64,000 bases of DNA, from IMG/VR virus record IMGVR_UViG_3300025073_000397; one strand, written 5' to 3'. The DNA comes from a virus. The first letter of the stretch is position 1; the number at the start of each line of letters is the position of its first letter. Below are positions 5,270 to 62,729 of the stretch, in pieces. The notes below the pieces were generated by a model. It worked only from the letters and a program-made list of their open reading frames with translations, was not told the DNA's origin and made no database searches. A program made the position numbers and the translations under genes.

Positions 5270-7622
5270 CTACACCCAATACCCCATTCACAAGACGTTC
5301 TCTCAAAAGAGAATTCCGTCTATCCTCTTGATCGTTGGAAACTGCCAGTGCAACCGCTTTCAGACTCCCCACCAGGATCACCTTCTTCTTTGCCCTTGTG
5401 ATCCCCGTGTAGAACAAGTTCCGCTGGAGCTGATGCCGGAAAGATGGCACCACGGGCATAATCACATAGTCATGCTCTTGCCCCTGGACCTTATGAACTG
5501 TCGTTGCAAAGGCCAATCGCACATGAGTCGCCGCAACATGAAAGGGCATCCTTATGACCAGAAGATTAACCCCCTCTATCTCCATCTCCAACATCTTGGA
5601 CTTGAAGTCAATCCCTCGAATCTTGCCAATATCTCCATTGTAGACACCCAGCCTGTAGTCATTCTTGAAGATCATTACCCGATCCGCGACCCTAACCACA
5701 GCATTCCCTATTCTCACCTCCATCTGCCCATGCTGCTTCGGATTCAGCACCTCTCTGAGGACACGATTAAGATTGGTCACACCAACCACACCAGCATGCC
5801 TGGGAGAGAGCACTTGGAATCGCAACTCTCTCTCCGCACATCTACGAGCCAGCTCCACGATAACCTTAGCCGCCTTTTCATCCGTTGATGTCTCCAACAG
5901 GACGAAATCCGATTCATCCAGGGTAGCCCCACACTTGGGGACCCTTCCGTGATAAGTGTCATGGGCGGCAAAGATGATACCCGACGTGTCTTTCTGGCGA
6001 TAGACTTCCGTCAAAGCCACAGACGGAAACTTACCAGATGCCAACATATCCCGAAGAACATTCCCCGGGCCCACCGATGGAAGCTGTGCTGCGTCCCCTA
6101 CGAAAATGATCTTACTAGTGGGGGCCGTACAGTGCAGTATCCGATAGAGCAGCGAGAGATCCAACATACTACTCTCGTCTGCCACTACGAAAGCAGCAGG
6201 ATAGGGATGCTCTGGTGAATAACCCCACTCACTCTTATCCGCCCCAACTGAAATGTTAGAATCCCCAAGAATACCCTCATAAGAATACTCACGAGTTTCT
6301 TCGGACTCCCCTTGCGCCTCAAATGCCCGATGGATCGTAAACGCCTCTGACCCGGTCAGAGCAGACAGTCTCTTGGCCGCAATCCCTGTAGGGGCAATCA
6401 GTAGGTAGGGCATCCCGGTCAACTGAAGTATCCTGACCAGCACCTGCATGGAAAATGACTTGCCCGTCCCGGGTAGTCCAGTCAGAATACTAACTGGATG
6501 GATAAGAGCGTTCGTGATTCCGTCTACTTGCTGAGGAGATAAAGAAACTTTTCGAGCCAGTTCCCAACCATGGACAGCAGTTGTAGCAATCTGCTTAAGA
6601 GACTCAACCTTTGAGTCGGGCGGGACTACCCCACAGTCTACCAATCGCTGTGTGAAATCTTTAACCCCATCTTCAGACCATTGAGCCGTCTGCAGCCGTT
6701 CCAGGAGCATTCTAGCCGCTCCGGACTCCATCTCATGGAGCCACACCTCATAAACTGCCTTGGTCCCCGTGAGCGTCGTCCTGTCCACGTAAACTCGCCC
6801 AACTTTGTGGAGAGCCACCAGTGCTTCCACGAAGGTTCGGTCATCCACACTGGGGACCAACTGTCGGACTTGGGCAAGTAGCATTCCGGTTGTCCCAAAA
6901 CTATGCCCCCCCAACTTCTGCATCTTGGTCGCATGAAGAACGGCCCCTGAGACCCTTTGCAGAGATACCCCACTCAGCCCCAGGTTGGTTGCTATGCTAT
7001 CCGCCTGCTGGAAAGTGAACCCATCCAATTCTGTCAGACGCCAAGGATTCCGTGCAAGGATGCCATCGGCATCCCCCCCAAATTCCGTCCAGATTGAATT
7101 GATCTTGTCTTGGGGAATACCTACCTGAGCCAAAAAGGACAATGTCCTGAGATGTGCTACCGTGGCTACCCAACGAGTTGAGATGTGCTCTGCCAATAGG
7201 GGGGTCAAGTCGGGGGCTTTACTCAGCTCGATGGGGTCTTCAAGCACCCCGGGGAATTTGTCTCCGAAGAACGCCTTGACCCGCAAAAGGAGCAGCTCCC
7301 CCACCCCATTGGAAGAAAGCATTTTGATAGCGGTTTCAGCATCCCACACCGCCTCGAAGATTGGAGCTCTCTTAATCTCCAATTGTCGCCCAAACTTTGG
7401 GTGTGTGACCCACTCCGCATCAAACTTCAGCCACATTCCGGGACGAACATCCAATCCGGGAATGTTCCCCCTTACAGAAGTCTGGACGTCATCAAAAACC
7501 GCCCACTGGGAAGCTACCTCTTGCTTGGGCTGTTCTTTTTCGTCCAATTCCATCTTAAGGACATAGAACGCCTGGGGCACATTCTCATACAAGATGGAGT
7601 CGACACGTCCGGAGAAGATCAT
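5154..7622 (-). CDS. RecD2-like SF1 DNA helicase
   Basis: 822 aa. Walker A is LTGLPGTGKSF, Walker B is VVADESSMLD, motif III is FVGDAAQLPSVGPG, and motif V/VI is TTVHKVQGQEHDYVIM ... TRAKKKVILVG. The N-terminal ~350 aa is unassigned. Confidence 0.85.
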   Translation of the reverse strand: MIFSGRVDSILYENVPQAFYVLKMELDEKEQPKQEVASQWAVFDDVQTSVRGNIPGLDVRPGMWLKFDAEWVTHPKFGRQLEIKRAPIFEAVWDAETAIKMLSSNGVGELLLLRVKAFFGDKFPGVLEDPIELSKAPDLTPLLAEHISTRWVATVAHLRTLSFLAQVGIPQDKINSIWTEFGGDADGILARNPWRLTELDGFTFQQADSIATNLGLSGVSLQRVSGAVLHATKMQKLGGHSFGTTGMLLAQVRQLVPSVDDRTFVEALVALHKVGRVYVDRTTLTGTKAVYEVWLHEMESGAARMLLERLQTAQWSEDGVKDFTQRLVDCGVVPPDSKVESLKQIATTAVHGWELARKVSLSPQQVDGITNALIHPVSILTGLPGTGKSFSMQVLVRILQLTGMPYLLIAPTGIAAKRLSALTGSEAFTIHRAFEAQGESEETREYSYEGILGDSNISVGADKSEWGYSPEHPYPAAFVVADESSMLDLSLLYRILHCTAPTSKIIFVGDAAQLPSVGPGNVLRDMLASGKFPSVALTEVYRQKDTSGIIFAAHDTYHGRVPKCGATLDESDFVLLETSTDEKAAKVIVELARRCAERELRFQVLSPRHAGVVGVTNLNRVLREVLNPKQHGQMEVRIGNAVVRVADRVMIFKNDYRLGVYNGDIGKIRGIDFKSKMLEMEIEGVNLLVIRMPFHVAATHVRLAFATTVHKVQGQEHDYVIMPVVPSFRHQLQRNLFYTGITRAKKKVILVGSLKAVALAVSNDQEDRRNSLLRERLVNGVLGVGGAQDEAVNERYAQGDQRENAGHEDRGISMREGSNPRG

Positions 7623-7629
7623 GGGTGTC

Positions 7630-8157
7630 TCAGTTGGCTTTCAGTCGATTAGCAATGTCTTTGAGAGCGTTTAGGCTCATGCCCTCCACTAGCTGGGGCT
7701 GTCCCTTCAGGGTATCCTGCATCTTGAGCATATCAACAACAGTGGCCATAGCTAATCTACCTGTATGCCCCACCAACTTCTCGAACGGCAATCGGACAAC
7801 TTGCCCTGCATCAGACCGAACCTGAAGGCACCCACTCTCCTCTAGGGTACCTTTTGCCACTACGTTCAGAAGGAAGGCCAGGTCAATGTGATGACCGGCC
7901 GGACAACTCTTTCTGCCCATAGCCTGCCAACGACAACATCCACCACCCCACTTGGTGGGATCAATTGACTCGGGAAGATGATGCATTGAAACTTGAACAT
8001 TCTGCCCTATGAAGGGTTTAACCACTTCCCAGACATTCTGGACTCCCGTCCGATCTTCGACCAATATCGACTCCAAAACGAGTGCGCCGTCTCCTTCCCA
8101 CAACGGCGAGTTGAAAAACCCCTCTAAAAGAATTGCATTGAAACCAGAAGACCACAT
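7630..8157 (-). CDS. hypothetical protein
   Basis: 175-aa ORF between the helicase and the RNR gene, Cys/His-rich (GGGCCRW, CPAGHH). Confidence 0.45.
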   Translation of the reverse strand: MWSSGFNAILLEGFFNSPLWEGDGALVLESILVEDRTGVQNVWEVVKPFIGQNVQVSMHHLPESIDPTKWGGGCCRWQAMGRKSCPAGHHIDLAFLLNVVAKGTLEESGCLQVRSDAGQVVRLPFEKLVGHTGRLAMATVVDMLKMQDTLKGQPQLVEGMSLNALKDIANRLKAN

Positions 8158-8179
8158 TGAATCACCTCCAGAAACACCA

Positions 8180-11100
8180 TTACACTATCTTGGGTCCATC
8201 GGGCGAGACCGAGCAAGACAAGGTGCAGGTATCATTGGAACAGAACTTCTCGGTCTCCTCATGGACAGCCGAACAGAGATTCAACGGTTTGATCCGCTTG
8301 ACCAACTTCTCGTACTCTTCCTTAGTGATCTCAATGTAAGGTGCCTGCTCATACCCATGGTCTTTTAAGGGGACAAACGATACCCCCTTGAGTCGAGTCT
8401 CAAAAGCTTCCAGACACGTCTTGATATCCTTGACTTCGTGGGGCTGAAAGGAAACAGAGATGCTGACAGCGTTGTCACTCCACTCTCTCTGCAAATCAGC
8501 TGCATTCATCATCTGTTCCCAAATCGTCACGTCCTTCTTCGACTTGGAAAAGTTCTTCTCATGAATGGGGAATGAGACCACAGAAGTCTCCGGGGCGCAT
8601 TTATCAGCTTCAACGAGATATCCTGCCTTGCGGCAAGCCTTGACCAGCGGGGATATGTCAGCCACCCGAACGTTCCTGATGTAGTATTCAGCATGAGGAT
8701 AGTGAATTCCGGGGGTGGCACCAACAACCAAAGAAATTGACCCAGATGGCTTAACGCTTGTGGTCTTAATCGACCGTGGGATGCAAAGCCATTCTGAGTA
8801 AATCTTGTCCAGTTCTGCTACGTACCTGTACCCTTCATCGCACCATCGCAGGTATTCCCGCCTGCCCAACTTCGCCATGGCCTGGACAATACCGGACTGT
8901 GAGCACCCTATCCGCCGATTCCGCATTGCAACCGCATTAGCTCGAAGATCATGTGTGGGAACAAGAGTCACAGTCTTAGCATACAGATAGGCGAACTTCA
9001 GAGTACGTTTAAAATCCTCCAGGGTGTCATGATTAGCAGGGAAGGACTCGACTAGGCAGCAGCACTCATATGCAGTTAAGGTTTGCTCCATGCATTGTGG
9101 TGTGAAGATACCCCCACATTCCATGGCAACTGGGTCGAATGCCGTTACAATCCCAACAGTATGGTTCACATCCACACTCAAATTATAGGCGGGTTCCTCA
9201 TCATCCAAGAAACGCAACGCCTTAACTGTATGATTGTACTCCCCCACAAGAGCCTTTAAGTGCCGAAATCCCCGCACAGCAAAGGGGTTCTGTGTGTGCC
9301 CCTCTCCTTGGAATCTGAAAGCAACCCCTCTCCTTCTGCACTCGTTCTCCCACTCCCGCTTAAGTGGCTCCCTTCCCAATGATACCTGCAATTCCTTGTA
9401 GGTGGAGACCTGATTGTGTCGCACTTGCTGCTGCCGTGCCGCATAACTCCGTCGCAACCCCACTGTTCTCTTTTGGATGTGCTTAGCATTCTTGTTCATA
9501 CAGGAACGGGAGCAAAATTCCGTGCTCCTTCTCCCCCATGGGACTAGACGTTTTTGGCCACATATCTTGCATTCACAAACAACTTGCAGACACCCATCCA
9601 CCCAAGTTGTCTCTAACTCCGTAGTAGCCTCTATCTCCTGGTAGTATTTAGCCAACTCTCGTCTTCGCCACTCGCTCATAGCGCGAGCCGCCCTTACTCG
9701 TTGTGCCTCTGTATGGAATCCCAATTTCTTACGATACTCCGGGTCTTTACACCTCTCCTTAGACTTGGCCCCTATTTTTGCTCTGGTCTCATCAGACTGT
9801 CTTCGGCCCCACATGGGATTCCGTACCCCCACGTTATCCCGTTGCCCATGGAATCTCTCATGATCCTCAAAATACATGATCTCCAAATTGGACGGGGCAT
9901 TGTTCAAGGGATTGTAGTCCCGGTGATGGACCACGATTCCCCCCTTTACCCATCCGGCTACTTTACCTGCATCGTACATCCGTGCCCATTTGTCGGGTTC
10001 CATGAATTTAGCGACCAACCGATGCTCATAAACTTTGTCCGCAGTACAATCCAATGTGTTGCAGTTCACTCTCAGATACCTGTCCTTTCCCTGGACGATA
10101 CATTCTGGACGTTTGGTGAACCTGGGCAGGCTATCCCCAACTTTCATATCTTTGGCCTCACACTTAGTCCCATCCAACCTGACCATCTTGTGGTCGGGTG
10201 TCACCTTTAAAACAGCACCATCATCGAGTACAACCTCCATGAATTTAGCTCGCATCCTCGTCATACGAGGATGCCTGCCAATCTGCACCTCAACCCGCCC
10301 TTCCGCAGTGAGTGAGTAGACAAGGATATCATCCCCCTCATCTGCCAATTGCCGAATAGGCACTGCACCACGCCCATCTGCCACCGCTATAAGGGTACTT
10401 CCAGCGAAACAAGGGTTAGCACCCATCACTCTAGCATCCACATAATTAGGCTTATCCCGCATCCGAGCGTAGGCCCGAGCATTCTCCAACCAGAAGAATC
10501 CTGGCTCCCCATTCGTAGCCGCCAACTCCGCAGTTCTGCTATAATCCATTCCCACCTTAGCCAGGATGGAATTGTTCGAACACCACCTGTGACTATTCAA
10601 TTTGGCCTTATCTTGTTTGAGGCTCATGAACTCCTCATCATCGGGTTCCCCAAACATAGCCTCCGCTGTCCTACGCAAGCCCCCGGACACAACACACTTC
10701 CCGATCAAATTGTAGATGTCCACAATCGTGGCAGTCGTAATCTTGTACGGCTCCCCATCCGCTGGGGTCAATAGCCCCGTTAAATCTCCAATCAAGTTGA
10801 TCAGGGGGTCAGGCCCAGCGGACACACCCCCAAACGTCTTGAGAGGCGAGCCAGCTGGCCGTATCTGCGAGTAGTCTATGCTGGTGGGGTAAAAGCCCTT
10901 TCCCACAAAGGAATTCAAGACTACCCGTAGTAATTCAACCCACCCTTCCCGACTATCATCCACCACATAAGGCTTGTCGGTATACCGGGGGACCTGAATC
11001 TTGACTTTCCCCGCCCCCCTTACATCCCCCGATATCCCAACACCCAGCATCGAGAAATCCATTAGGAAACAGAAAGGCCCAGCAAAGTCTACATCTATGT

Positions 11101-11578
11101 CTTTCGTACTGGAAAGCCCACAGTTCATTAAGCAGGCGCTACCCTTCTTCTCCACAATGTCTGTCCCCATCCCCCAGAGACCCCTCCCTGGAGGCAGGAA
11201 CTTGAACTGCCACATACGAGTGTACATCTCTTGCGCTGAATTCTGGGCTTTGGCTTCGTCCCAAGGGAGCTTCAGATCCCAACAGTGCCTCTTTTGGATG
11301 TTGTAGACGCCCTCCACTACACGCCTGCAAGTCTCCCGGAACTCCTCTGTAGTACCATCTGGTTGAGTTCTGGCGTAGGTCCTCTTAAAAATGAAATACC
11401 CAAGACCCCCATACCCCCACTCTGGCTGTTTGCCTGCGAACTGGTCAAGGAACGACTGAGATATCTTGAAGACCCGGACCTTTCTGTCACTCGGAGAATA
11501 GAACTCTGACATGATTGGTTGTGCCCTTTCAGTGTAGGAGATTAGCTCAATGGATTCTGCATCGTCCCAATTGACCAC
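8180..11578 (-). CDS. nrdJ: class II (adenosylcobalamin-type) ribonucleotide reductase NrdJ, interrupted by an intein
   Basis: 1132 aa. Class II RNR blocks FLPPGRGLWGMGT, SACLMNCGL, GEPGFFWLENARAY, ...VMGANP|C. After the insert the extein resumes with CMEQTLTAYECCCLVESF, matching NPCxE...YExCNLGSI. The spliced size would be about 693 aa. Confidence 0.85.
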   Translation of the reverse strand: MVNWDDAESIELISYTERAQPIMSEFYSPSDRKVRVFKISQSFLDQFAGKQPEWGYGGLGYFIFKRTYARTQPDGTTEEFRETCRRVVEGVYNIQKRHCWDLKLPWDEAKAQNSAQEMYTRMWQFKFLPPGRGLWGMGTDIVEKKGSACLMNCGLSSTKDIDVDFAGPFCFLMDFSMLGVGISGDVRGAGKVKIQVPRYTDKPYVVDDSREGWVELLRVVLNSFVGKGFYPTSIDYSQIRPAGSPLKTFGGVSAGPDPLINLIGDLTGLLTPADGEPYKITTATIVDIYNLIGKCVVSGGLRRTAEAMFGEPDDEEFMSLKQDKAKLNSHRWCSNNSILAKVGMDYSRTAELAATNGEPGFFWLENARAYARMRDKPNYVDARVMGANPCFAGSTLIAVADGRGAVPIRQLADEGDDILVYSLTAEGRVEVQIGRHPRMTRMRAKFMEVVLDDGAVLKVTPDHKMVRLDGTKCEAKDMKVGDSLPRFTKRPECIVQGKDRYLRVNCNTLDCTADKVYEHRLVAKFMEPDKWARMYDAGKVAGWVKGGIVVHHRDYNPLNNAPSNLEIMYFEDHERFHGQRDNVGVRNPMWGRRQSDETRAKIGAKSKERCKDPEYRKKLGFHTEAQRVRAARAMSEWRRRELAKYYQEIEATTELETTWVDGCLQVVCECKICGQKRLVPWGRRSTEFCSRSCMNKNAKHIQKRTVGLRRSYAARQQQVRHNQVSTYKELQVSLGREPLKREWENECRRRGVAFRFQGEGHTQNPFAVRGFRHLKALVGEYNHTVKALRFLDDEEPAYNLSVDVNHTVGIVTAFDPVAMECGGIFTPQCMEQTLTAYECCCLVESFPANHDTLEDFKRTLKFAYLYAKTVTLVPTHDLRANAVAMRNRRIGCSQSGIVQAMAKLGRREYLRWCDEGYRYVAELDKIYSEWLCIPRSIKTTSVKPSGSISLVVGATPGIHYPHAEYYIRNVRVADISPLVKACRKAGYLVEADKCAPETSVVSFPIHEKNFSKSKKDVTIWEQMMNAADLQREWSDNAVSISVSFQPHEVKDIKTCLEAFETRLKGVSFVPLKDHGYEQAPYIEITKEEYEKLVKRIKPLNLCSAVHEETEKFCSNDTCTLSCSVSPDGPKIV
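9095..10411 (-). mobile_element. intein (~439 aa) with HNH homing-endonuclease domain, inserted at the RNR NP|C active site
   Basis: Block A is CFAGSTLIAVADG (compare Sce VMA CFAKGTNVLMADG). The HNH motif is VVHHRDYNPLNNAPSNLEIMYFEDHERFHG. Block F is AYNLSVDVNHTVGIV. Block G is GGIFTPQ followed by Cys+1, a C-terminal Gln instead of Asn, as in a minority of inteins. Boundaries were inferred by eye. Confidence 0.6.
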
Positions 11579-18750: not shown

Positions 18751-20139
18751 TTGATAACTGATCATGAGTTTCCTTGCTCTTCCTTGATGCACGAGTTCTT
18801 CCCGTTTCTCACTTACAGGACAGCTGCGGATATGGTCCCCAGAAGGGACACTCCGTTAGTCTTGTCCACTGATCGTGAGCACCCCTGTAGTTCTCTGATG
18901 GAGTATTTGTTCCCCTTTGCTTTCCCCACTATCGTCCATGTACATCATGGTAGGAAGTCCTCTCGGCAGATATCGACCCTGTCCCTTCACCCTATAGTCA
19001 GAAGCGTCCTGCTATGGCTGGGAGACGGGCAGGCAGATGTGCCAGTCTCAAAGCACGATGTACAAGCGATGGTCTACCTGAAGCTTGGGATTGATGTCCG
19101 GAATCCTTTCGTGAAACTACAGGAGGAAGATGGGCTGAACCGGCAGATCTGGTTTGCCGTCAGGAATCAAATCAAACGGTACAATTCCGTGAGGAACTGG
19201 ACCGGGCTGGAACAAGGGAAGTGGCTGATCACAGAAGAAGGAGTCACCGTAACGGAACCTTTCCCCATGGGGCCCGAGTTGTTTGCCCCGAGGATCAAGG
19301 TGATATCGGCCGAATTGGGGGAGACTGCAACCAACGAGCAGATACAGGACACCGTTTTGGCGAGTTTCGGATTTGATCCCACTGGTTTGAAAGCCCACGA
19401 ATTGCGCCGGATCATTGCACAGATTTTAACCCCCATCCAAAGCGATACCCGCCCCAAGCAGATGGAGGACGGGCGATTCTCACCGTGTATCACTGCCGAA
19501 TGGTTGGGGCAGCAACCCCCCAAGTTCCACGAGACGCTGAGAGAAGCTCTTATGTTTAAGATGCAGAAGTCCGTACAGGTGGGGTCGATAGATGATCATG
19601 TCCAGACTGCCTACACTCGCTGGATTCAGCGGGATGCCTTTCGGATCAAGATCGAATCTGGACACCCCCCTACTGTCAAGCAGTGCTGTAACTACCTGAA
19701 AAACTCAGCGTTCACCGACATACGCACATTCGGTCGGGATGCCCTGGGACGGCATCTGGGGGCATTGACTGCGAGGACACGGGAGAAGATGGAGAAGATA
19801 GATGCCATCCCCCTCACGGTACACGAGAGCCCTCACCTACAGAAGCCTGATACTCGTATCACCATAGTCGAAGGTGACGTAGAATTCGTGGACCAGGGGT
19901 CCATAGGAGACCCTGAGAGTCTTGTTCAGGCTAGAGAAGAAGTTCAGGAAATGCGAAAACTGATTGCTCGAAAAGTCAGAAAAAGAACCGAAGAACACGT
20001 CAAGCTATTCGACATGATCTTCCTCGAAGGCACCCCTATCGATCAGATGGTCATCATCCTGGGCGTCCCCAGAGAAATCGTGAAGTCCATGTTGGGGCGG
20101 ATACGGAAGATACTAGTGACTGCCAGGGCTAGAACTTAG
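18751..20139 (+). CDS. putative transcription regulator with sigma-70 region-4-like C-terminal HTH; the N-terminus carries a duplicated PCSSLM motif
   Basis: 462 aa. The C-terminus LFDMIFLEGTPIDQMVIILGVPREIVKSMLGRIRKIL resembles sigma region 4. Two N-terminal copies of D(H/R)E(F/H)PCSSLM..FPF differ at synonymous codon positions, so the repeat is under protein-level constraint. Confidence 0.5.
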   Translation: MITDHEFPCSSLMHEFFPFLTYRTAADMVPRRDTPLVLSTDREHPCSSLMEYLFPFAFPTIVHVHHGRKSSRQISTLSLHPIVRSVLLWLGDGQADVPVSKHDVQAMVYLKLGIDVRNPFVKLQEEDGLNRQIWFAVRNQIKRYNSVRNWTGLEQGKWLITEEGVTVTEPFPMGPELFAPRIKVISAELGETATNEQIQDTVLASFGFDPTGLKAHELRRIIAQILTPIQSDTRPKQMEDGRFSPCITAEWLGQQPPKFHETLREALMFKMQKSVQVGSIDDHVQTAYTRWIQRDAFRIKIESGHPPTVKQCCNYLKNSAFTDIRTFGRDALGRHLGALTARTREKMEKIDAIPLTVHESPHLQKPDTRITIVEGDVEFVDQGSIGDPESLVQAREEVQEMRKLIARKVRKRTEEHVKLFDMIFLEGTPIDQMVIILGVPREIVKSMLGRIRKILVTARART

Positions 20140-33049: not shown

Positions 33050-33084
33050 CACTTGTACTACCCGACTCTCTCAAAGCCTAACAG
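33050..33084 (-). promoter_or_regulatory. promoter motif instance A (TGTTAG-N14-GGGTAGTA on minus strand), ~170 nt upstream of the NTase gene
   Basis: Plus-strand TACTACCC at 33056-33063, a 14-nt spacer, then CTAACA at 33078-33083. Confidence 0.6.
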
Positions 33085-33372: not shown

Positions 33373-33407
33373 CACTTGTACTACCCGGCTGACTGAATTT
33401 CTAACAG
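33373..33407 (-). promoter_or_regulatory. promoter motif instance B
   Basis: TACTACCC at 33379-33386, a 14-nt spacer, then CTAACA at 33401-33406. The flank (ACACTTGTACTACCCG) is identical to instance A over 16 nt. Confidence 0.6.
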
Positions 33408-37260: not shown

Positions 37261-38163
37261 ATGGCTCCTCTCAGAAAACGATCCGACCTGACTCCCCCAC
37301 TAGGACATCCTGGTGGTCCTTGTCATGTAGTGGATCGAATCCAGAAGGAGGTTCGAAACCCACGAGTCCAGGAACATCTGGTGGGGGAAATCGAGAGGGG
37401 CAAGAGTCTGAGTAACCCTGAGGCCGCTGAGATATATGACCTGGAGAGTGAGATTGGGATTGGAGGCCCTTTCAAACAGATCATCCTTGGGCCACATTCT
37501 CTATATCGGATGGATCTAAGGGGAGTAACCCTGCCAGCCATTCGGGCCACACTCAAAAACTTCTCCAGAGAATACAACGATGCCAAGTCTCGTAGAAGCC
37601 CCCAATTTGAACGTTGGGAGCAGGAGTTTAATCAAGGGGGCGGTATCAACTGGACGGATCCAAGATTGGGGCTTACAATTGTCTTTGCCAATGGGGGCTA
37701 TGGGCGGGTCAAGATCATTACCACCTATTGGAAAGGGGAACCCGATCCAAAGGCACACCCTGGAGAGTGTCAAATCCAACTGCATGCCAGTAGAGTTGCC
37801 CAACGTTATCTGAAAGAACGGGCATCTATCTCTAGAATAGCAGGCAAGCATCTGGCTAAAGTGAACTCCCACCCGATGCCTTTACAATCAGTTAGGTGGG
37901 TGCAGCAAGAAGTCCTGACCCCACAGATGAAAAAGGCGATAGATGATTTTGCTCGTGCCTTCGTGACGAAAGGTCAATCTATTCGTCGTATTTTCTCTGA
38001 GGCTCTGGACAATGCTCGCAATCAGACAGAAGGTGGGCAGTACATTCGAGACGTGGATGCCTTTATAGCCGTCAAGCACTACCTCAAATCTGGGCCCTGG
38101 TCTGATGATAACCTTCTCGATCCCTTAGCGTCCGTCATAGCCTATGGGGATTACGTCTTTTGA
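37261..38163 (+). CDS. hypothetical protein
   Basis: 300-aa ORF. Confidence 0.5.
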   Translation: MAPLRKRSDLTPPLGHPGGPCHVVDRIQKEVRNPRVQEHLVGEIERGKSLSNPEAAEIYDLESEIGIGGPFKQIILGPHSLYRMDLRGVTLPAIRATLKNFSREYNDAKSRRSPQFERWEQEFNQGGGINWTDPRLGLTIVFANGGYGRVKIITTYWKGEPDPKAHPGECQIQLHASRVAQRYLKERASISRIAGKHLAKVNSHPMPLQSVRWVQQEVLTPQMKKAIDDFARAFVTKGQSIRRIFSEALDNARNQTEGGQYIRDVDAFIAVKHYLKSGPWSDDNLLDPLASVIAYGDYVF

Positions 38164-38852
38164 CGCCTGAGTGGCTCAAGGTTTCCTTTCAGGTACCTTT
38201 CCGTGTCCATCCTAGTCCCCAGTACATGATCAACTACTTGGCCACGTTGGAGAGCGACAGTGCGAATCTTGTCACCCCTCATCCCACTCCCAACCATAGC
38301 CTTCCTTTGACTATTACGATCCTGCTCTTTCTTGGCTCGATCTTGTTCCTGTATCCGTGCCGACAAGATAGCCTTAGCTAATCGTAAATTCTGCTGCTGG
38401 CTGCGTTCAGTTTCGCACCTTACCGCTAGTCCCGTAGGCTTGTGGGTCATCTGTATGGTGGAAGCCGTTTTGTTCCTGTTCTGTCCACCAGCGCCGTGGC
38501 CACAAGTGGCTTTGATCTCCAGATCTCGTTCATCCAGTTTTACAGTGGACTCATCTGGCATATCAAGAATGGCTACCGTTATTGTAGAAGTATGGACCCT
38601 TCCCCGTTTCTCAGTGGGTGGCACACGTTGCCATCTTATGCCACCTGCTTCATGCTGGAAAGCCTTTTTGGCCCCAACCCCACTTACTTGGAATACCAGT
38701 ATCCCAGGATGCTCTTCCACCACCTGTACTTCTAGACCATTGATAGTGCACCACTTCTGATAAATGCGGGACTGTTCTAATACCAATAGCCGTGCGTCCA
38801 TTCCCCCTTCAGCCGCTCTAACTTCCACCAGTATCGTTTCCATGGCTGTCAT
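38151..38852 (-). CDS. class I peptide chain release factor homolog lacking domain 1 (PrfH-like / RF1-like)
   Basis: Start moved to MTAMETIL (SD AAAGGAA 4-8 nt upstream). The GGQ motif is ATCGHGAGGQNRNKTASTIQMTHKPTGLAVRCETERSQ. The PxT-like tripeptide PPT sits 44 residues upstream of GGQ, the same spacing as RF1 PAT to GGQ, and RVPPTEKRGRVHTS resembles RF1 RVPATESQGRIHTS. No domain-1 equivalent is present. Confidence 0.75.
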   Translation of the reverse strand: MTAMETILVEVRAAEGGMDARLLVLEQSRIYQKWCTINGLEVQVVEEHPGILVFQVSGVGAKKAFQHEAGGIRWQRVPPTEKRGRVHTSTITVAILDMPDESTVKLDERDLEIKATCGHGAGGQNRNKTASTIQMTHKPTGLAVRCETERSQQQNLRLAKAILSARIQEQDRAKKEQDRNSQRKAMVGSGMRGDKIRTVALQRGQVVDHVLGTRMDTERYLKGNLEPLRRQKT

Positions 38853-38859
38853 GTTCCTT

Positions 38860-39156
38860 TCATTTGGGTGACTCCATCCGAGCCACCATGTCACTTTCCC
38901 AATCCTGCAAGCCGTAGTTAGCAAGGTTACGCAACTCACGGGTCTGGTGACGCCAGTGGTAAACCCGATCCCGACAACCAGTACAGCACATCCCAGAATC
39001 TATCTTGGGCTTTCCATGAATACGCTTGTGGCAGTGACACCCTAAAGGTGTAGATTTGGCATACCGATGCGGTTCCCGACCGGGGGGTGCAAAAGGAGTT
39101 TCACAGCGACGCCTGATGGCACAAAGAGTAAGGGACCGTCTGAGTCCACGATCCAT
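38860..39156 (-). CDS. small basic Zn-finger-like protein
   Basis: 98 aa. A strong SD (AAGGAGG) lies 8 nt upstream of the ATG. CHCHKRIHGKPKIDSGMCCTGC is Cys/His-rich. It sits immediately upstream of the RF-like gene, and promoter motif H lies upstream. Confidence 0.45.
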   Translation of the reverse strand: MDRGLRRSLTLCAIRRRCETPFAPPGREPHRYAKSTPLGCHCHKRIHGKPKIDSGMCCTGCRDRVYHWRHQTRELRNLANYGLQDWESDMVARMESPK

Positions 39157-39243: not shown

Positions 39244-39278
39244 CGTCCATACTACCCCAAATGCTATGCACCTAACAA
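39244..39278 (-). promoter_or_regulatory. promoter motif instance H, upstream of the Zn-finger + RF-like gene pair
   Basis: TACTACCC at 39250-39257, a 14-nt spacer, then CTAACA at 39272-39277. Confidence 0.6.
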
Positions 39279-39531: not shown

Positions 39532-40191
39532 TTACCAACCAAAGGACAATCGCAGGATCCGCATGTTTGCGTTCCTACTTCTATACGTGATGAAGGCACT
39601 ATCCGGTATGTGATCGATGCCGCAATACTCCTGGATGCTCTGTGCAAAACGAGTACGAGCAGCAGCCAACGAGACAGACCTAGTTCCCCGCATAGCCTGA
39701 TTGATAACCAGTAGGAACTGCCCAAGACGCTCGTACTGTGATCTAGCAAAGGTCAACACGGGGGTCAGGATGGCATCTTGTTCAAGGTTACTGGGGCTGT
39801 AGAAGGCATCAAAGACCAGGACGCCTACGTTGTGCAGAGTGGGGTTATCCAAGTCCGACAGAAGGTGCAGGATGTCAGCATGTACCCATTGAGTGGTATC
39901 CCCAGCATAGGCTTGGGAGTTCCTACGGATGATGTCTGGATCCCTGTTGACCCCGATGTAACGTCCTGAGCCGGGGATAATGGCACCTTCTTTCAGTAGG
40001 AGTCCACAAGTGACATCAGGTGCGTCTCCACAGAGTTCTACCCAGTCATGCGTGAGGTGCCCATTATGCCACAGGCATGTGGGATGAGTTTCGTCCCGTA
40101 GGAGATCCAGAGTGCCAACTCGTATTTGATGTTTCTTTGGGTACTGGTCCGGGGGATAGAAGTGGATGTCGGTTGCTGGAGTGGGTTTCAT
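39532..40191 (-). CDS. hypothetical protein
   Basis: 219-aa ORF. An overlapping 146-aa ORF (39309..39749) in another frame was not called separately. Confidence 0.45.
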   Translation of the reverse strand: MKPTPATDIHFYPPDQYPKKHQIRVGTLDLLRDETHPTCLWHNGHLTHDWVELCGDAPDVTCGLLLKEGAIIPGSGRYIGVNRDPDIIRRNSQAYAGDTTQWVHADILHLLSDLDNPTLHNVGVLVFDAFYSPSNLEQDAILTPVLTFARSQYERLGQFLLVINQAMRGTRSVSLAAARTRFAQSIQEYCGIDHIPDSAFITYRSRNANMRILRLSFGW

Positions 40192-40243: not shown

Positions 40244-40453
40244 CTACTTCTTCTTAGCGCCCAACGCAAAGCCAAGGGCGTCAATCTGCTTGATTTCAGC
40301 CGGGGACAGTACCACCATCCTCTGCCAAAGCCGGTAGCCGTCCTTACAGATGTAGGACTTCGGGACATGGCTATTCCCGAACTCATTCTTGTAAGCGGCC
40401 AGGTGGTCAATGAACTGGGGGAACCATTCTCTCTGCTCTGCTATAGTCTTCAT
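40244..40453 (-). CDS. stand-alone single helicase-associated (HA) domain protein
   Basis: 69 aa. WFPQFIDHLAAYKNEFGNSHVPKSYICKDGYRLWQRMVVLSPAEIKQIDALGF is one HA unit (PF03457-like). Its own promoter motif C lies 39 nt upstream. Confidence 0.55.
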   Translation of the reverse strand: MKTIAEQREWFPQFIDHLAAYKNEFGNSHVPKSYICKDGYRLWQRMVVLSPAEIKQIDALGFALGAKKK

Positions 40454-40491
40454 CTCTTCATCCTTTCCCGGATATCACCGGGGGTTGTTAC

Positions 40492-40526
40492 ACTAGGTAC
40501 TACCCGGATCTTTGAAAGTCTAACAC
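40492..40526 (-). promoter_or_regulatory. promoter motif instance C
   Basis: TACTACCC at 40498-40505, a 14-nt spacer, then CTAACA at 40520-40525. A CCCGG-ATATCA-CCGGG hairpin (40467-40482) lies between the motif and the start codon. Confidence 0.6.
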
Positions 40527-40559
40527 ACAAAGGTGAACGAATTGTCTTGAAGTTGGGGT

Positions 40560-41519
40560 TCATCGCGTTGCCTTCTTCGGTTGGGAGCGGGATTTGACTT
40601 GCCACACGAAGCCGAGTGCGTCTAGTTGGGAGACCATTTCAGGAATGATACGTAAGGCACCCTTGGAGGTTTTTTTGGCTGTACGGATGCAATTGACACG
40701 AACCCCCAATTTGTATCCGTCACTAGATGTATAAGAACGCCTGATCAGGCAATCGCCAAAGGCGTCTTTGTAGGCTGTAAGATGTTCCATAAAGGGTTGG
40801 AACCACTTTCCTTTGGTGGTGGCATCCCACACGAATCCAAGGGCTTCTAGTTGAGAAACCATCTCAGAAGTAATACGCAGGCCATTGCCCCTCTTCCTAC
40901 CATTTCGTATATCATTCACCCAGCGTCCCAGGGGGGTATCCATCCGGGCAAATGTGTAAGAAAGGCACTCGACAATCCCCATGCTCCCTTTTGTACACTT
41001 CCAGATGTTCTAAACATTCAGGGAACCACACTTTGTAACCCACAAACCAGACGAACCCGATAGCATCAAGTTGCTCAACCATCGCAGCGGAAACCTTTTT
41101 GCCTCCAACTCCATTTCGCCCTAGACGGACATAGTTCAGTTGCTTTCCGAGTTTGTACCCATCCCTACAGGTGTACGAGCGGGAAACCAAACAATCCCCA
41201 TACTCCCCCTGTATTCCCGCATATGGTCCAAAAATTCGGGGAACCACTTTCGGTAGCCTACTTCCCAGACAAAGCCCAACGTGTCAAGTTTAGAAATCAT
41301 CCAAGGCGTGATATGGAGACTCTTGAACTCTTTATGATTCTGCCGAATGTTATGCACCTGACCACCGAGTTTGTAGCCGTCTGGGCAGGCATACGACAGG
41401 GGCACTAACCCAGACCCATACTTCTCTTTGTACGTCGTCAGTCGCTCAACGAACTCGTCAAACCAGTGAACATCTGGGTCAGTAATGCCAAGGAAGACAG
41501 CATACTCGTGGAGATTCAT
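40560..41519 (-). pseudogene. HA-domain repeat gene (~5 units) disrupted by two homopolymer-associated frameshifts
   Basis: Track ORFs 41136..41657, 40912..41247 and 40560..40982 together tile one HA-repeat reading frame. It starts MNLHEYAV... at 41519, paralogous to the 608-aa gene start MNLYEYAV.... The frame switches occur at a G5 run (minus-strand cagggggag, ~41200) and a C6 run (tacccccctgg, ~40935). Confidence 0.5.
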
Positions 41520-43342
41520 GCTGCTGACCTCAAAGGACGCCCACCCTGTGCAGAGGCTTCCCAGACAAAACCCAAAGCATCCAATTGATGAATCCTTTCG
41601 GGAGTTAATTCCATTCCGCCGTACCCTTTTCGGGCCAGCCGAACACGGCCAACACACCTTCCCAAACGATAGCCATCTGGGCTGACATATTTCTGTACAA
41701 CCATGCAGTCTCCCTTACTCAGCTTATAAGCTTTTAGATGTTTAATGAATACAGGGAACCAGCGCCTTTTAGGCTTAGCGGCCCATACAAGTCCAATAGC
41801 ATCTAACTGTGAGAGCATCTCAGCAGTCACCTTCATCCCACCAGTCCCCCGAATACTGGCACAAACAACCGCGACTTGTTGCCCCAACTTATAGCCATCT
41901 GGTGAGACATACGAATGTGTAATTCGGCAACTACCATACTCTGTTTTGTACAGATTCAGGTGCTGTACAAAATCCGGAAACCAGCGTCCAGACCAATTAG
42001 CATCCCATATGAACCCCAACGCATCAATCTGATCAATCTGATCAGACGTCAAAGACCCGTGCCTATAGTACTGCCGAACAGTAGAGACATGCTTACCAAG
42101 AGCATACCCATCTGGGCTAATGTAAGCCGTGGGTGGAGAGCCCCCCCCCAGTTGATTCTGGTACAGACGGAGATGTTCGACAAAAGAAGGGAACCACTGT
42201 CTTGTTGGGGGTACATCCCATACGAAACCGACCTCCTCTAGTTGAGCTTCCATTTTGGGGGGGATGTACCACCCGTGTTTACTTTTGACTGTGGGATATC
42301 GATGCCCTATCCGGATGCTGCTCGTCAAATGGCCAAGTTTGTAACCATCTGGGCTGACATATCCGACTGGAATTCTACTGTCCCCATGTTCCTTCATGTA
42401 AGCAACCAGATGTTGGAGATATTCCGAAGAACTGCGGGTACGTCTTGTCCCCTTCCATATGAATTCCATGGCATTCAATTGAGAGACCATCTCACGGGTT
42501 AGCCTATTTTTTACCGGATTCGACTTCATACCACGTATGGTCCCCACCCGATGCCCCAAATGATAACCGTCTGAGCAAACGTACCCTGTGGGGATCTGGC
42601 AATCCCCTGTCTTCACCTTGTATTCAGATAGATGCAGGATGAATTTGTCAAACCAATTTCTGTCCCATACAAACCCAAGCGAATCCATCTGACGGATCAA
42701 TCCTTGGGGTATGGGGCCAATTTTCCTACTGGATCTCATCCTAGACGCTCGTGATCCCAATCTGTAGCCATCTGGACAGGTATAAGAGTCAGGCACATCA
42801 CAATGTCCGTACTCTCTCCTGTAGAGCCTGAGATACCTTATAAAGTCAGTCTGCCACGAACCGTTGTTCCACACAAAGCCAAGTGAACTGAGTGCGGACT
42901 CCATCGCGGGGGTTACACGCCTACTCCCCCTAGACGAATTCTTTGCGTACCGGATGCTAACTATCATTTCCCCTAGTTTATAGCCGTCGGGACAGACATA
43001 TTGCTTCACCACACGGCAATCTCCGAACTCTGCCCTATATTCGGACAACTTTGTACAAAACGCCGTAAACCAATCAAAACGCTGTACTTGCCACACAAAA
43101 CCAAGGGAGTCCAATTGCACGATCATATCTTGCGAAAGGCCAGTATCACCAGCTTGCATTAAATGCCTAACCCTCATGACCCGTGAACTAAGGCAATAAC
43201 CATCTGGGCAAACACACGGGAAGGGAGTCAGACAATCTCCGTGATCCTTCTTATACTCTTTCAGATGCTCAATGAAATTCTCAAACCATGGCACTCTTGG
43301 TTTTGTCCACCCCTGGGAAACGGCATATTCATAGAGGTTCAT
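41516..43342 (-). CDS. protein made of ~9 tandem helicase-associated (HA) domains
   Basis: 608 aa of repeated W(F/W).F..HL..Y+.E.GDC.VP..Y.CPDGY+LG..V..IR.......L....QLD.LGFVW units. It has an ATGA overlap with the upstream SF2 helicase gene. Confidence 0.7.
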   Translation of the reverse strand: MNLYEYAVSQGWTKPRVPWFENFIEHLKEYKKDHGDCLTPFPCVCPDGYCLSSRVMRVRHLMQAGDTGLSQDMIVQLDSLGFVWQVQRFDWFTAFCTKLSEYRAEFGDCRVVKQYVCPDGYKLGEMIVSIRYAKNSSRGSRRVTPAMESALSSLGFVWNNGSWQTDFIRYLRLYRREYGHCDVPDSYTCPDGYRLGSRASRMRSSRKIGPIPQGLIRQMDSLGFVWDRNWFDKFILHLSEYKVKTGDCQIPTGYVCSDGYHLGHRVGTIRGMKSNPVKNRLTREMVSQLNAMEFIWKGTRRTRSSSEYLQHLVAYMKEHGDSRIPVGYVSPDGYKLGHLTSSIRIGHRYPTVKSKHGWYIPPKMEAQLEEVGFVWDVPPTRQWFPSFVEHLRLYQNQLGGGSPPTAYISPDGYALGKHVSTVRQYYRHGSLTSDQIDQIDALGFIWDANWSGRWFPDFVQHLNLYKTEYGSCRITHSYVSPDGYKLGQQVAVVCASIRGTGGMKVTAEMLSQLDAIGLVWAAKPKRRWFPVFIKHLKAYKLSKGDCMVVQKYVSPDGYRLGRCVGRVRLARKGYGGMELTPERIHQLDALGFVWEASAQGGRPLRSAA

Positions 43343-45339
43343 GCTACATCCATCCCTTTCGTTAATCGGATGACTTGGTCATTGATATGCGTCCAGTTGA
43401 CCACTCCAGCGGGAAGGCCAAAGTAAGGGGATGCATCCCCTGACGTGGAAATCGGTGCCACGCCGTTGTTCTTATTGAGGTAGTCAAACATAGCCACTCG
43501 TATTTGCTCCAGAGTGAACTTTGGTGCCTTGAATCTTGCTCGGAGTCCCTTGGCAATCTCTTTAGCTGTAATGCCCCGGAACTGAGACATATGCCCGATG
43601 ACCGTCGCCGTTTGTTTCGTATTGGCTATTTCCTGTGCGAACTCAGCGATCACACCATCAAAGATCCCCTGCAACTCATCCCGGATGATACGGGAGTCCC
43701 CGCTGAAACCACCCATCTGCTTGATCCTGCCATTCAACTTGGTCTTGAATACAGTGAATGCCAGTGCCTTCCGTTTGATCATGTCATAGGCCAGGGCACG
43801 TTTGGCCCTAGCCAATACATCTCCTTCCAATCCCATCCTGACGGTGAAGAAGTCCACTACATCCTGTGTGGTGGGTTTGGCTATCCCATCCTCCTGCAAA
43901 GCATTGATAGCCATAACCATCTGCCCGGTAGCCTCACGGCATTGCTGGACATCCCCCCCGATGTAGTTGACCACATCTTCCCACGTTTCCTCGTAGGGTC
44001 GTTTCTTACCCGTAGGCTTCACTCCAAATCGACGGGGGAGATTCCCCAAGTACCCCTGCCCGATCTCTACATCAGCCATGAAACAAGCAGTCAGGAAGGC
44101 ATGGTCCTTATGCTGCTGTTCAAAGGCATCAAACACTTCTGATGATGCGCTGGGGACAAGGAACGTCAAGACAGTCGTGTTCTTGTGCTGCTCCGGGTAA
44201 CCTTCAATGTCACCCTTGAAACGCAAACCCCTACCCAACTTTTGTAAGATAAGCCCAAAGGAATGAGTCAGCCCAATATTGTAGACATGACTGCACAGTG
44301 GCCAATCTGTCCCCTCATTGAACCGGGCGCATGCTAGGATCACTTCCACTTTAGAGTCGGCATACACCTTCACCAACCGTTCGGTTCGTAACAGAGCTTT
44401 CAGCGCACAAGTTACTCGGACCCCACCCTTTACAGCATTATGGACATGGACACCACGCTTAGTGAATTCAGCCATCAACCGGTTTGCCCACCTCTCAGAT
44501 CTCTTGGGGGGAACAATGACAACCGCTTTGGGATGCCCATCCTTTTCCCATAGATCCACGATCTGTTTACTGGACTCAGGGGAAGCATAGGCCATTGCTC
44601 CACCCGCAAGCTGCTCTACAGAAGTCGCCTGCATGGAGATAGGGCAGGATCTGATCAGGACATTGCTAGGAGCGAACTCCCCGGATTCAATGTGATCTGC
44701 CAGAGTACGAGTGTACCTGGGGGCAAACTCTCCCATAAGGATATCATCATCCCTACGGAATGGAGTCGCAGTCATATGGACTACTGTACCACCACGCTCA
44801 AGCCATGCCTTGGTGAAGGCACCAACACAGTTACCTATGGCGGCATGGTGGGCTTCATCCAGTATCAGGATGCACTTGGACAGGTCTTCCGGGAGGAGTG
44901 TCTGATCTTCCTTGAACCACCGGGAAACTGCTTGCTGAGTTGTGACCAGAGTCCGTTGAACTGGATTGACTGCCCGGACATGTGCTCTGAATTGGGAACG
45001 ACGGCCCTTACTGACCTGGAACCACTGCTTTGCCCTTACCATTATATTGCACAGCACAGAAACCCGCCCAGGTACACTTTCCGGGGAGGGCAGTATGTCC
45101 AAGTCATCAGAGTAAATGAAAGCATCGGTAATTTGGCGCTGTGGCGCTACTACGACAGCCGACACAAATTGCCGTGTATTGAGTACCCTTTCCACTAAGT
45201 AAGTCCCCATCAGGGACTTACCAGACCCTGGTGGTCCACTCAGCACCACCTCTTTACAACCAGTGGTGAGGCACCGAAACAGGTAGTGGAAGCATTCCTG
45301 CTGGTAAGGTCTCAAGGTACGTGTTTGATGCAACGCCAT
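43339..45339 (-). CDS. SF2 helicase, ResIII/DEAD-like
   Basis: Walker A is VLSGPPGSGKSLMGTYL; the DEAH box is ILILDEAHHAA; the helicase-C region is around MTATPFRRDDD. The track start at 45357 is GTG, so the ATG at 45339 (MALHQTRT) was preferred. Confidence 0.8.
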   Translation of the reverse strand: MALHQTRTLRPYQQECFHYLFRCLTTGCKEVVLSGPPGSGKSLMGTYLVERVLNTRQFVSAVVVAPQRQITDAFIYSDDLDILPSPESVPGRVSVLCNIMVRAKQWFQVSKGRRSQFRAHVRAVNPVQRTLVTTQQAVSRWFKEDQTLLPEDLSKCILILDEAHHAAIGNCVGAFTKAWLERGGTVVHMTATPFRRDDDILMGEFAPRYTRTLADHIESGEFAPSNVLIRSCPISMQATSVEQLAGGAMAYASPESSKQIVDLWEKDGHPKAVVIVPPKRSERWANRLMAEFTKRGVHVHNAVKGGVRVTCALKALLRTERLVKVYADSKVEVILACARFNEGTDWPLCSHVYNIGLTHSFGLILQKLGRGLRFKGDIEGYPEQHKNTTVLTFLVPSASSEVFDAFEQQHKDHAFLTACFMADVEIGQGYLGNLPRRFGVKPTGKKRPYEETWEDVVNYIGGDVQQCREATGQMVMAINALQEDGIAKPTTQDVVDFFTVRMGLEGDVLARAKRALAYDMIKRKALAFTVFKTKLNGRIKQMGGFSGDSRIIRDELQGIFDGVIAEFAQEIANTKQTATVIGHMSQFRGITAKEIAKGLRARFKAPKFTLEQIRVAMFDYLNKNNGVAPISTSGDASPYFGLPAGVVNWTHINDQVIRLTKGMDVA

Positions 45340-45355
45340 GCTAACTCCTTTCAAC

Positions 45356-45390
45356 ACTTGGTACTACCCACCCAACACAAACCCTAACAA
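45356..45390 (-). promoter_or_regulatory. promoter motif instance D, upstream of helicase + HA-repeat operon
   Basis: TACTACCC at 45362-45369, a 14-nt spacer, then CTAACA at 45384-45389. Confidence 0.6.
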
Positions 45391-49205: not shown

Positions 49206-49240
49206 ACCCTGTACTACTCTGCCGTGCTACTTCCTAACAG
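49206..49240 (-). promoter_or_regulatory. promoter motif instance F (variant)
   Basis: TACTACTC at 49212-49219, a 14-nt spacer, then CTAACA at 49234-49239. Confidence 0.5.
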
Positions 49241-52858: not shown

Positions 52859-52893
52859 AACTCATACTACCCGCCTGATTCCACTTCTAACAG
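52859..52893 (-). promoter_or_regulatory. promoter motif instance E
   Basis: TACTACCC at 52865-52872, a 14-nt spacer, then CTAACA at 52887-52892. Confidence 0.6.
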
Positions 52894-62483: not shown

Positions 62484-62695
62484 CAGAACGCATTCTCCAC
62501 GAGTTTAAAGCCGGATATATACGAGACGGGGTAATCCTTGGTAACCCAACCGGAACCTGTGAGAAGTGCAGCAGAGTGGATGTTCCCGTCATTTGCATCG
62601 ACCCGGCTGAGATGGAATATGGCTACTACTGGTGGTGCCAGAATTGTCTCAATGAAATGTTCGGCATCCTGTTAGACAAACCCAAACCAGAGTAG
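62480..62695 (+). CDS. small Zn-binding hypothetical protein
   Basis: 71 aa with an ATGA overlap. Confidence 0.4.
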   Translation: MTERILHEFKAGYIRDGVILGNPTGTCEKCSRVDVPVICIDPAEMEYGYYWWCQNCLNEMFGILLDKPKPE

Positions 62696-62729
62696 TATGG
62701 TTTGGTGGCAACTGGAGGTTTCGAACCAC

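Follow-up and report, generated by a model that had tools for sequence, protein, structure and literature searches.

The 64,000-nucleotide (64-kb) stretch of DNA analysed here, hereafter the window, comes from IMG/VR virus record IMGVR_UViG_3300025073_000397 and is apparently a portion of a very large phage genome. Its minus strand carries a gene for a superfamily 2 (SF2) helicase, followed by genes that encode nothing but helicase-associated (HA) repeats. The second of these genes, HA2, is broken twice in its reading frame. We think it probable that the locus is a split helicase/DNA-binding-repeat module, arranged as one operon, whose redundant distal HA genes are decaying through real alleles that segregate in the phage population.

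We propose that a phage-specific promoter drives the SF2 (ResIII/DEAH) helicase gene and that the HA-only genes are translationally coupled to it through ATGA overlaps. The native state in the population would be helicase, HA1 (8 units), HA2 (5), HA3 (6) and a one-unit open reading frame (ORF), followed by ORFan X. The window would be a damaged derivative of this state: loss of 1 nucleotide (nt) from a G6 run would have split HA2, and a 1,591-bp deletion between HA2 unit 3 and HA3 unit 5, misaligned by one C, would have produced the second frame break. Both lesions, together with two indel alleles in the last unit, would segregate in the population with helicase and HA1 held constant; selection on the distal HA genes, as redundant copies, would be relaxed, and these genes would be in the course of being lost.

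Organization of the locus

The order on the minus strand is promoter-like motif, helicase, HA1, broken HA2, promoter-like motif, an HA ORF of 69 amino acids (aa) and ORFan X. ATGA overlaps are found at both the helicase/HA1 and the HA1/HA2 junctions. An earlier reading of the letters without database searches (the sequence-only reading) had given the same gene order, the HA identity of the repeats, the ATGA coupling, the two frame breaks and the internal promoter motif, and all of these were confirmed by the ORFs, by Pfam and by a motif scan. The locus is best explained as a single operon of a huge (jumbo-type) groundwater phage. Its features are as follows.

45361..45389, minus strand: promoter-like motif TGTTAG-N17-TAGTAC 5' of the helicase gene (promoter D of the sequence-only reading); bipartite, with a fixed 17-nt spacer
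43339..45339, minus strand: SF2 helicase, 666 aa; Pfam ResIII, PHROG_16 and motifs
41516..43342, minus strand: HA1, 608 aa, eight HA (PF03457) units; Pfam, with an ATGA overlap at each end
42141..42149, minus strand: G9 run (coding sense), in frame in HA1 unit 6; invariant, and an internal control for homopolymer error
41136..41519, minus strand: 5' fragment of HA2, a 127-aa ORF with the MNLHEYAV leader, unit 1 and part of unit 2; ends past the G5 break
41205..41209, minus strand: G5 run, apparently the 1-nt deletion allele of a G5/G6 polymorphism; contig comparison
40937..41204, minus strand: middle of HA2, with the remainder of unit 2 and the first half of unit 3, in the -1 frame only; ORF 40912–41247, Pfam HA 4.8e-10
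40931..40936, minus strand: C6 run, apparent junction left by the 1,591-bp deletion, where HA2 unit 3 meets HA3 unit 5 with the register shifted by one base; long-form contigs
40560..40930, minus strand: HA3-derived tail, with the second half of unit 5 and unit 6, in the original frame again; matches the 3' end of HA3 (467 aa; L011/L017) exactly
40691..40707, minus strand: two indel-polymorphic sites in the last unit, G5/G4 (40703–40707) and GC/GCGC (at 40691); contig comparison
40497..40525, minus strand: second copy of the promoter-like motif (motif C of the sequence-only reading), in the spacer after the HA array; motif scan
40244..40453, minus strand: 69-aa ORF, a single HA unit minus 17 residues; Pfam HA 1.2e-4 and alignment
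39532..40191, minus strand: 219-aa ORFan X, conserved partner of the helicase family

A long form of the locus and the origin of the C6 break

To compare the locus across the population, we retrieved 25 loci representing 21 distinct contigs from groundwater samples, taken from Joint Genome Institute (JGI), European Nucleotide Archive (ENA) and Logan records; the allele counts given below cover these contigs. Identity to the window was 99.6% or higher for all 21. Many public assemblies contain exact copies of HA1 and of the 69-aa protein, the latter being identical on 20 contigs.

The locus exists in two forms. From the start of HA2 to the start of the 69-aa ORF, the short form (the window and seven other contigs) measures 1066–1068 nt and the long form (seven contigs) 2657–2659 nt. 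In the long form, HA2 has 383 aa (five units) and a third gene, HA3, has 441–467 aa (six units); HA3 opens with the MNLHEYAV leader as HA2 does. Counting HA1 (8), HA2 (5), HA3 (6) and the one-unit ORF, the total is ~20 HA units. Over their first 105 nt, HA2 and HA3 of the long form are 89% identical, and a repeated 5' leader cassette of this kind could be a substrate for unequal crossing-over that expands or contracts the HA gene set.

The long form accounts for the second frame break. In the sequences below a slash marks the join. The parental sequence in HA2 unit 3 reads ...GGATGGATACCCCC/TTGGGAGAC... (more fully ACACATTTGCCCGGATGGATACCCCC/TTGGGAGAC), that in HA3 unit 5 reads ...GGATGGCTACCCCC/TGGGACGC... 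(more fully ACACATTTGCCCGGATGGCTACCCCC/TGGGACGC), and the window has ...GGATGGATACCCCCC/TGGGACGC... at the corresponding point. The ends of the deletion are 26-nt near-identical stretches, copies of ACACATTTGCCCGGATGG followed by A or C and then TACCCCC, with one extra C at the junction; the sequence common to the two ends comprises 18 + 7 nt. The C6 run had been taken for a simple homopolymer frameshift. It appears instead to be the scar of a 1,591-bp HA2/HA3 deletion with a one-C misalignment, which would have removed ~7 HA units. A deletion in register would have been 1,592 bp long and would have fused both reading frames cleanly. Six contigs end exactly at the ...TACCCCC junction point; such ends are expected if the assembly graph forks where a long and a short form coexist.

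The G5 break as a probable segregating allele

The HA2 frame (MNLHEYAV...) breaks at the G5 run at 41205–41209, where one added G restores ...REYRGEYGDC.... At the C6 run (40931–40936), one C fewer restores ...DGYPLGRWVN..., and the frame past this second break is the frame that was in use before the first. The G run is G6 in L003, L012, L015 and L019 and G5 in every other contig. With G6, L012 and L019 encode an intact HA2 of 383 aa, and in L003 and L015 the HA2 frame remains open as far as the contig reaches. In a gene catalogue, an identical 127-aa G5 product was found on 12 contigs and the intact 383-aa product on three. The G5 break is, by this comparison, evidently a segregating 1-nt deletion allele and hence a real population variant.

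Two further small indels lie in the last unit, G5/G4 at 40703–40707 and GC/GCGC at 40691. At both sites the window carries the alleles that keep this unit intact; other alleles at 40691–40707 shorten HA3 to 441 or 447 aa. We considered the mixture of alleles on long and short forms as evidence of recombination or recurrent mutation and rejected it, because assemblers can join variants arbitrarily in mixed populations.

Distribution of the damage and alternative explanations

All four small indel sites and the deletion are confined to HA2/HA3. Over the ~3.8 kb of helicase and HA1, the contigs differ by one single-nucleotide polymorphism and no indel, and the helicase has zero indels across 12 contigs. 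The G9, C7, G7 and C6 runs in helicase/HA1 never vary in length; for G9 this holds in 17 of 17 covering rows (15 distinct contigs). Since the long runs of helicase/HA1 are constant and HA2/HA3 are damaged, we conclude that the former are probably under purifying selection and that damage is tolerated in the latter. The G9 run had been described as an 8-C run in frame near 42140; it is in frame, but 9 nt long (42141–42149). Decay of a redundant paralog, one of several options raised for the frameshifts in the sequence-only reading, fits the data best: G5/G6 segregates, and the G6 version is intact in the population.

Several points weigh against such decay. Allele frequencies and coexistence within a sample are estimated from contig consensus sequences and contig ends, and linkage between variant sites would be untrustworthy in mixed-strain assemblies. 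At ~99.9% identity, no dN/dS signal is left to prove relaxed selection. The broken frames contain no extra stops, so that fragments such as the 127-aa product might still be produced and serve a purpose. The small indels all lie in G/C runs or in a GC dinucleotide, as a slippage switch would look. The helicase core is not specifically related to bacterial HA-fused helicases, and the function of the HA array, its DNA binding and its contact with the helicase are proposals as far as this locus is concerned.

The same variation might reflect a phase-variable contingency locus, in which the phage would switch the distal HA proteins, or change their size, by slippage in G/C tracts and by unequal recombination among HA units. 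Tract length indeed varies within the population (G5/G6, G4/G5, GC/GCGC), and G5 and G6 are each present in several samples. These sites, the junction C5/C6 and a repeat-mediated deletion all fall within ~1–2.6 kb, with none in the flanking 5 kb, and the number of HA genes and units in relatives ranges from 2 to ~20 units. Nevertheless, we regard a contingency locus as unlikely. The tracts are only 4–6 nt long, whereas the far more slippage-prone G9, C7 and G7 tracts of HA1/helicase are constant, which points to selection and not to a designed hot spot; the support for slippage-based phase variation, also raised earlier, is weak for this reason, even though tract lengths do vary. We did not find variation in the most slippage-prone tracts combined with switching that restores an ORF: downstream allele combinations (net +1, +2) leave the frame unrestored, and the C6 junction is unable to revert to the long form. 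Relatives have no equivalent tracts or breaks. Moreover, a G5/G4 indel splits an unrelated gene in a co-occurring phage. This was seen when positions 8295 and 9065–9075 of L031, from a different huge phage, were compared with L032: an X-like gene of 248 aa is split into 142 + 120 aa, and an intergenic tract is G10 in one assembly and G8 in the other. G-run indels therefore seem to be a general background in these populations or assemblies. More doubtful still is a bolder proposal, that the distal HA genes form a deliberately unstable array, resized rapidly through slippage and unequal recombination, as partner of the huge-phage helicase. If this were true, the HA proteins might serve to cover or hide phage DNA, or to rival host defence enzymes in which HA domains read DNA, namely HA-fused Mrr/helicase and phospholipase D (PLD) nucleases; the array would then be a contingency locus on the phage's side of an arms race over DNA recognition.

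An artefact of sequencing or assembly, with homopolymer miscalls behind the breaks and repeat collapse behind the short form, is in our judgement very improbable. In its favour, both breaks are located in homopolymers, the encoded protein sequence is repetitive, several contigs are interrupted at the junction, and the evidence comes entirely from metagenome assemblies. However, the same G5/C6 short-form sequence recurs in JGI, ENA (SPAdes-style NODE names) and Logan contigs, and the long form is present in MEGAHIT-style k141 and JGI contigs. The deletion ends share just 18 + 7 nt, much less than the word lengths of 127 and 141 contained in the names of MEGAHIT-style contigs, and the junction holds a base found in neither parent. 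Homopolymer error should strike long runs first, but runs of 6–9 nt are constant in all contigs. Sequencing or assembly error, as suggested in the sequence-only reading, is thus unlikely, given that the alleles recur across pipelines and longer runs are constant. Programmed ribosomal frameshifting had been suggested as well and is hardly credible. It would have to shift by -1 at the G run and by +1 at the C run to yield a single HA protein of 319 aa. The two shifts would compensate (-1 nt, +1 nt), the native frames are without extra stops, and P-site slippage from GGG to GGG is formally possible as read off the sequence. Yet the zero frame at the G run is TAC AGG GGG AGT, with no X XXY YYZ heptamer, and the 95 nt downstream fold no better than shuffled sequences (z = +1.36). 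An unshifted G6 allele occurs in the same population, the C6 scar is absent from long-form genomes, and in relatives the orthologous arrays are plain intact ORFs in which the site is not conserved.

The HA repeats

HA1 matched Pfam PF03457 with an E-value of 1.7e-76 (252.9 bits versus a cut-off of 28.4) in eight stretches. We delimited the units at the ...LGFVW sequences that end them, which gave a repeat length of ~73 aa. This count yields eight units in HA1, where ~9 had been claimed, and a window total of 13 (HA1 8, the repaired second gene 4 and the 69-aa ORF 1, truncated) instead of ~15. When scored singly against PF03457, as the sequence-only reading had proposed, all 13 dissected units matched (E ≤ 0.01, best 4.8e-15). 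The free-standing 69-aa ORF is a single HA unit as described, but it lacks 17 residues and, scored whole, reaches 22.7 bits, below the Pfam gathering score of 28.4.

Tandem Repeats Finder (TRF) detected no tandem array at the DNA level in the HA region, where one had been expected; a repeat search alone revealed a ~219–225-nt periodicity at 60–80% identity. The HA amplification is therefore probably old. A two-unit model built with a multiple sequence alignment gave the HA units of the window a three-helix fold like that of the solved HA domain (PDB 2KTA); a single-sequence AlphaFold2 (AF2) model of HA1 was useless (pLDDT 33). HA1 and HA3 are basic (pI 9.4–9.7). Searches of INPHARED phages with the locus (megablast) and with HA1 (tblastn) found nothing, and neither HA1 nor X had a PHROG match.

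The helicase

The helicase ORF spans 43339–45357 and encodes 672 aa from a GTG codon, the length assigned to it previously. That length holds for the ORF; the ATG at 45339, preceded by an AAAGGAG Shine-Dalgarno sequence, gives 666 aa, and all sister contigs have their start called there. Pfam ResIII matched at 1.2e-11 (45.3 bits versus a cut-off of 22.5) and PHROG_16 (DNA helicase) at 4.4e-25. The translation carries GPPGSGKS, DEAHH, TATP and QKLGRGLR (Walker A, DEAH box, motif III and motif VI, respectively). PF00271 (Helicase_C) did not match the window helicase; motif VI is present, and homologues of 30–35% identity carry PF00271.

The helicase is 43–54% identical to helicases on related huge-phage contigs, and the family is located on contigs of 170–530 kb. 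A tblastn search of INPHARED phages with the helicase gave two weak matches only, phmmer of helicase and HA1 against the PDB gave none, and no relative was confirmed when IMG/VR was scanned with HA1 and with the helicase. PADLOC returned weak partial matches to the helicase, none of them diagnostic of a defence system.

The module in related huge phages

The closest distinct relative, L033 (528 kb), has a helicase 54%, an X 56% and a release-factor-like protein 62% identical to those of the window. It carries six intact HA-only genes around X, with 3+4+4+4+3+2 units (~20), and the majority of these genes begin with an ...NKFR.RL..LG leader. L026 has the helicase followed by HA356, HA230, HA354 and X, with 4-nt overlaps throughout and an MNxLxxKLxxMGL leader in common; L028 has the helicase, a single two-unit HA gene (HA160) and X. 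In ERZ1426841, three HA genes lie 5' of the helicase. In P0077, five HA units are fused to the C-terminus of a helicase that is 43% identical over helicase residues 5–603. A relative of 35% identity is without HA genes and has X directly after the helicase (hmmsearch 7e-35).

These huge-phage relatives (L033, L026, L028 and ERZ1426841, together with the fused P0077/L027) resemble the window in having an orthologous helicase (43–54%) and X (39–56%), and in having HA-only genes with a conserved N-terminal leader and overlapping stop and start codons; in L033 the release-factor-like gene, too, lies downstream. They differ in that their HA genes are all intact, whereas the second HA gene of the window is frameshifted and fused by deletion to the remnant of the third. 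Because X is kept beside the helicase even without HA genes, the conserved core appears to be helicase plus X, with the HA genes as an accessory block whose size varies widely. A layout of separate genes appears to be native, and ~20 units, as in the long form of this phage and in L033, to be a recurring full complement. The detached HA array had been regarded as an oddity; multi-gene HA arrays beside this helicase are in fact conserved in the huge-phage clade.

The N-terminal leader is conserved among consecutive HA genes in L026 (10076–13627), L028 (2361–3574) and L033 (7297–12209). In L026 and L028 the downstream gene X has the HA-gene leader too, and the HA genes of the window use MNL[YH]EYAV. 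On the minus strand of L033 (15679–16927), a Cas12f1-like gene with a TNB domain (TnpB-type) and a LAGLIDADG endonuclease gene adjoin the release-factor-like gene.

Relation to known HA proteins and proposed function

HA (PF03457) is a widespread domain, and its repeats are known to occur joined to SF2 helicases. The typical C-terminal fusion was not found here, the genes being separate in the window and in most relatives. The arrangement appears to be a split version of the helicase–HA fusion that occurs in cellular proteins. Bacterial SF2 helicases with C-terminal HA units (P0016 of Glycomyces; BVU_0683, whose HA domain is PDB 2KTA) share with the window the repeat family, the three-helix fold and the association of arrays of 5–9 units with a ResIII/DEAD helicase. 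Unlike in these fusions, helicase and repeats in the window are separate coupled genes, with several HA genes (13–20 units). What the helicase itself has in common with its fused bacterial counterparts is limited to generic SF2 motifs, and the huge-phage family is always paired with X.

HA-only proteins of 4–13 units are numerous in metagenomes and occur also in an uncultured siphovirus; HA is seen in giant-virus helicases as well. Presenting the window's HA genes as detached and massively amplified, as if this were exceptional, was therefore an overstatement. HA-only proteins of Siphoviridae sp. ctNU74 (A0A8S5NYW4) and of a bacterial chromosome (L029) likewise consist solely of HA, in 4–7 units. 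These are single genes, however, that of L029 without an adjacent helicase, and have no described function or population structural variation. An actinophage-like contig (L030; WhiB, Dam, resolvase) carries, at 6427–9556, a 307-aa ResIII gene followed by HA-only genes of 185 and 387 aa. This appears to be an independent split helicase/HA arrangement in a mobile element.

A passage in PMC12191111, citing Mills et al. 2013, calls HA a DNA-binding domain. HA is listed among TniQ DNA-binding domains (PMC11406308) and is found fused to TniQ target selectors (PMC11406308; bioRxiv 10.1101/2025.07.27.667033). The basic pI of 9.4 is consistent with the DNA binding known from the literature. Most likely, the HA proteins act as DNA-binding accessory subunits of the helicase, which they would tether or target on DNA. 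That they work with the helicase is suggested by the P0077 fusion, by translational coupling and by strict adjacency. Stand-alone HA genes beside one helicase family, fused to it once, make a 'Rosetta stone' argument for joint action.

Helicase–HA proteins (COG4889 + HA) are frequent cargo of the acr-aca2 operons of mobile elements (PMC13551039). Like the window, they pair a helicase of phages or mobile elements with HA, and they have a suspected role in host-defence conflict; unlike the window, they are single fused proteins of another helicase family. No acr or aca genes were identified among the genes examined around the window locus.

The huge-phage module of helicase, multi-gene HA array and X, its extreme copy-number plasticity and its population-level decay appear to be undescribed, and our findings do not overturn current knowledge. 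For annotators, the second HA gene of the window is a probable pseudogene remnant and the long form the reference state. It was independent assemblies alone that resolved the homopolymer frameshifts of a metagenome as a point indel and a repeat-mediated deletion scar.

A promoter-like motif family and ORFan X

The motif TGTTAG-N17-TAGTA[CT] matches the window eight times, against 0.13 matches expected by chance. The copies lie at 33055–33083, 33378–33406, 39249–39277, 40497–40525, 45361–45389, 49211–49239 and 52864–52892 on the minus strand and at 62670–62698 on the plus strand; seven of the eight are thus on the gene-dense minus strand. All five copies inspected precede ORF starts, and GGG usually precedes the -10 element. 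The copy at 40497–40525 has GGGTAGTACCWAGTGT in common with the helicase promoter only. We interpret the motif as a promoter-like, phage-specific family of sigma-70-like type. A generic scan for sigma-70 promoters and terminators gave no signal above background. The window also encodes a sigma-like protein (18751–20139; PHROG 5.7e-5).

A mini-ORF of three codons (ATG AAG AGA TGA; 40447–40465, minus strand) has an ATGA overlap with the start of the 69-aa HA ORF; it forms part of an 8-nt direct duplication picked up by TRF.

ORFan X follows the helicase/HA genes in L026, L028, L027 and L033 and stands directly after the helicase in L031. No family was found for it in Pfam (at E ≤ 5), NCBIfam, PADLOC or PHROG, and the sole lead in a PDB profile search, catechol O-methyltransferase, was non-significant (E 1.4). 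Rossmann-like motifs (ELCGDAPD, VGVLVFD, FLLVIN) can be seen by eye in the alignment of X.

Other genes of the window

The remainder of the window encodes a class II ribonucleotide reductase with an intein/HNH insert, a RecD-like helicase, a SNF2-like helicase, GroEL, a UvsX-like recombinase, the sigma-like protein and a release-factor-like protein; the majority of the remaining ORFs are without family. Scanning the window for tRNA and Rfam families found none.

An alternative genetic code, hinted at by the release-factor-like gene, was considered and rejected: the breaks are frame changes, not stops, and the ORFs are long under code 11. There is likewise no sign of stop-codon reassignment, the ORFs being long under the standard bacterial code. 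The release-factor-like protein itself (38151–38939, minus strand) has PCRF and RF-1 domains and its own promoter copy, and its counterpart in L033, at 62% identity, occupies the matching relative position. The class II ribonucleotide reductase gene (8180–11578, minus strand) is interrupted by an intein with an HNH endonuclease.

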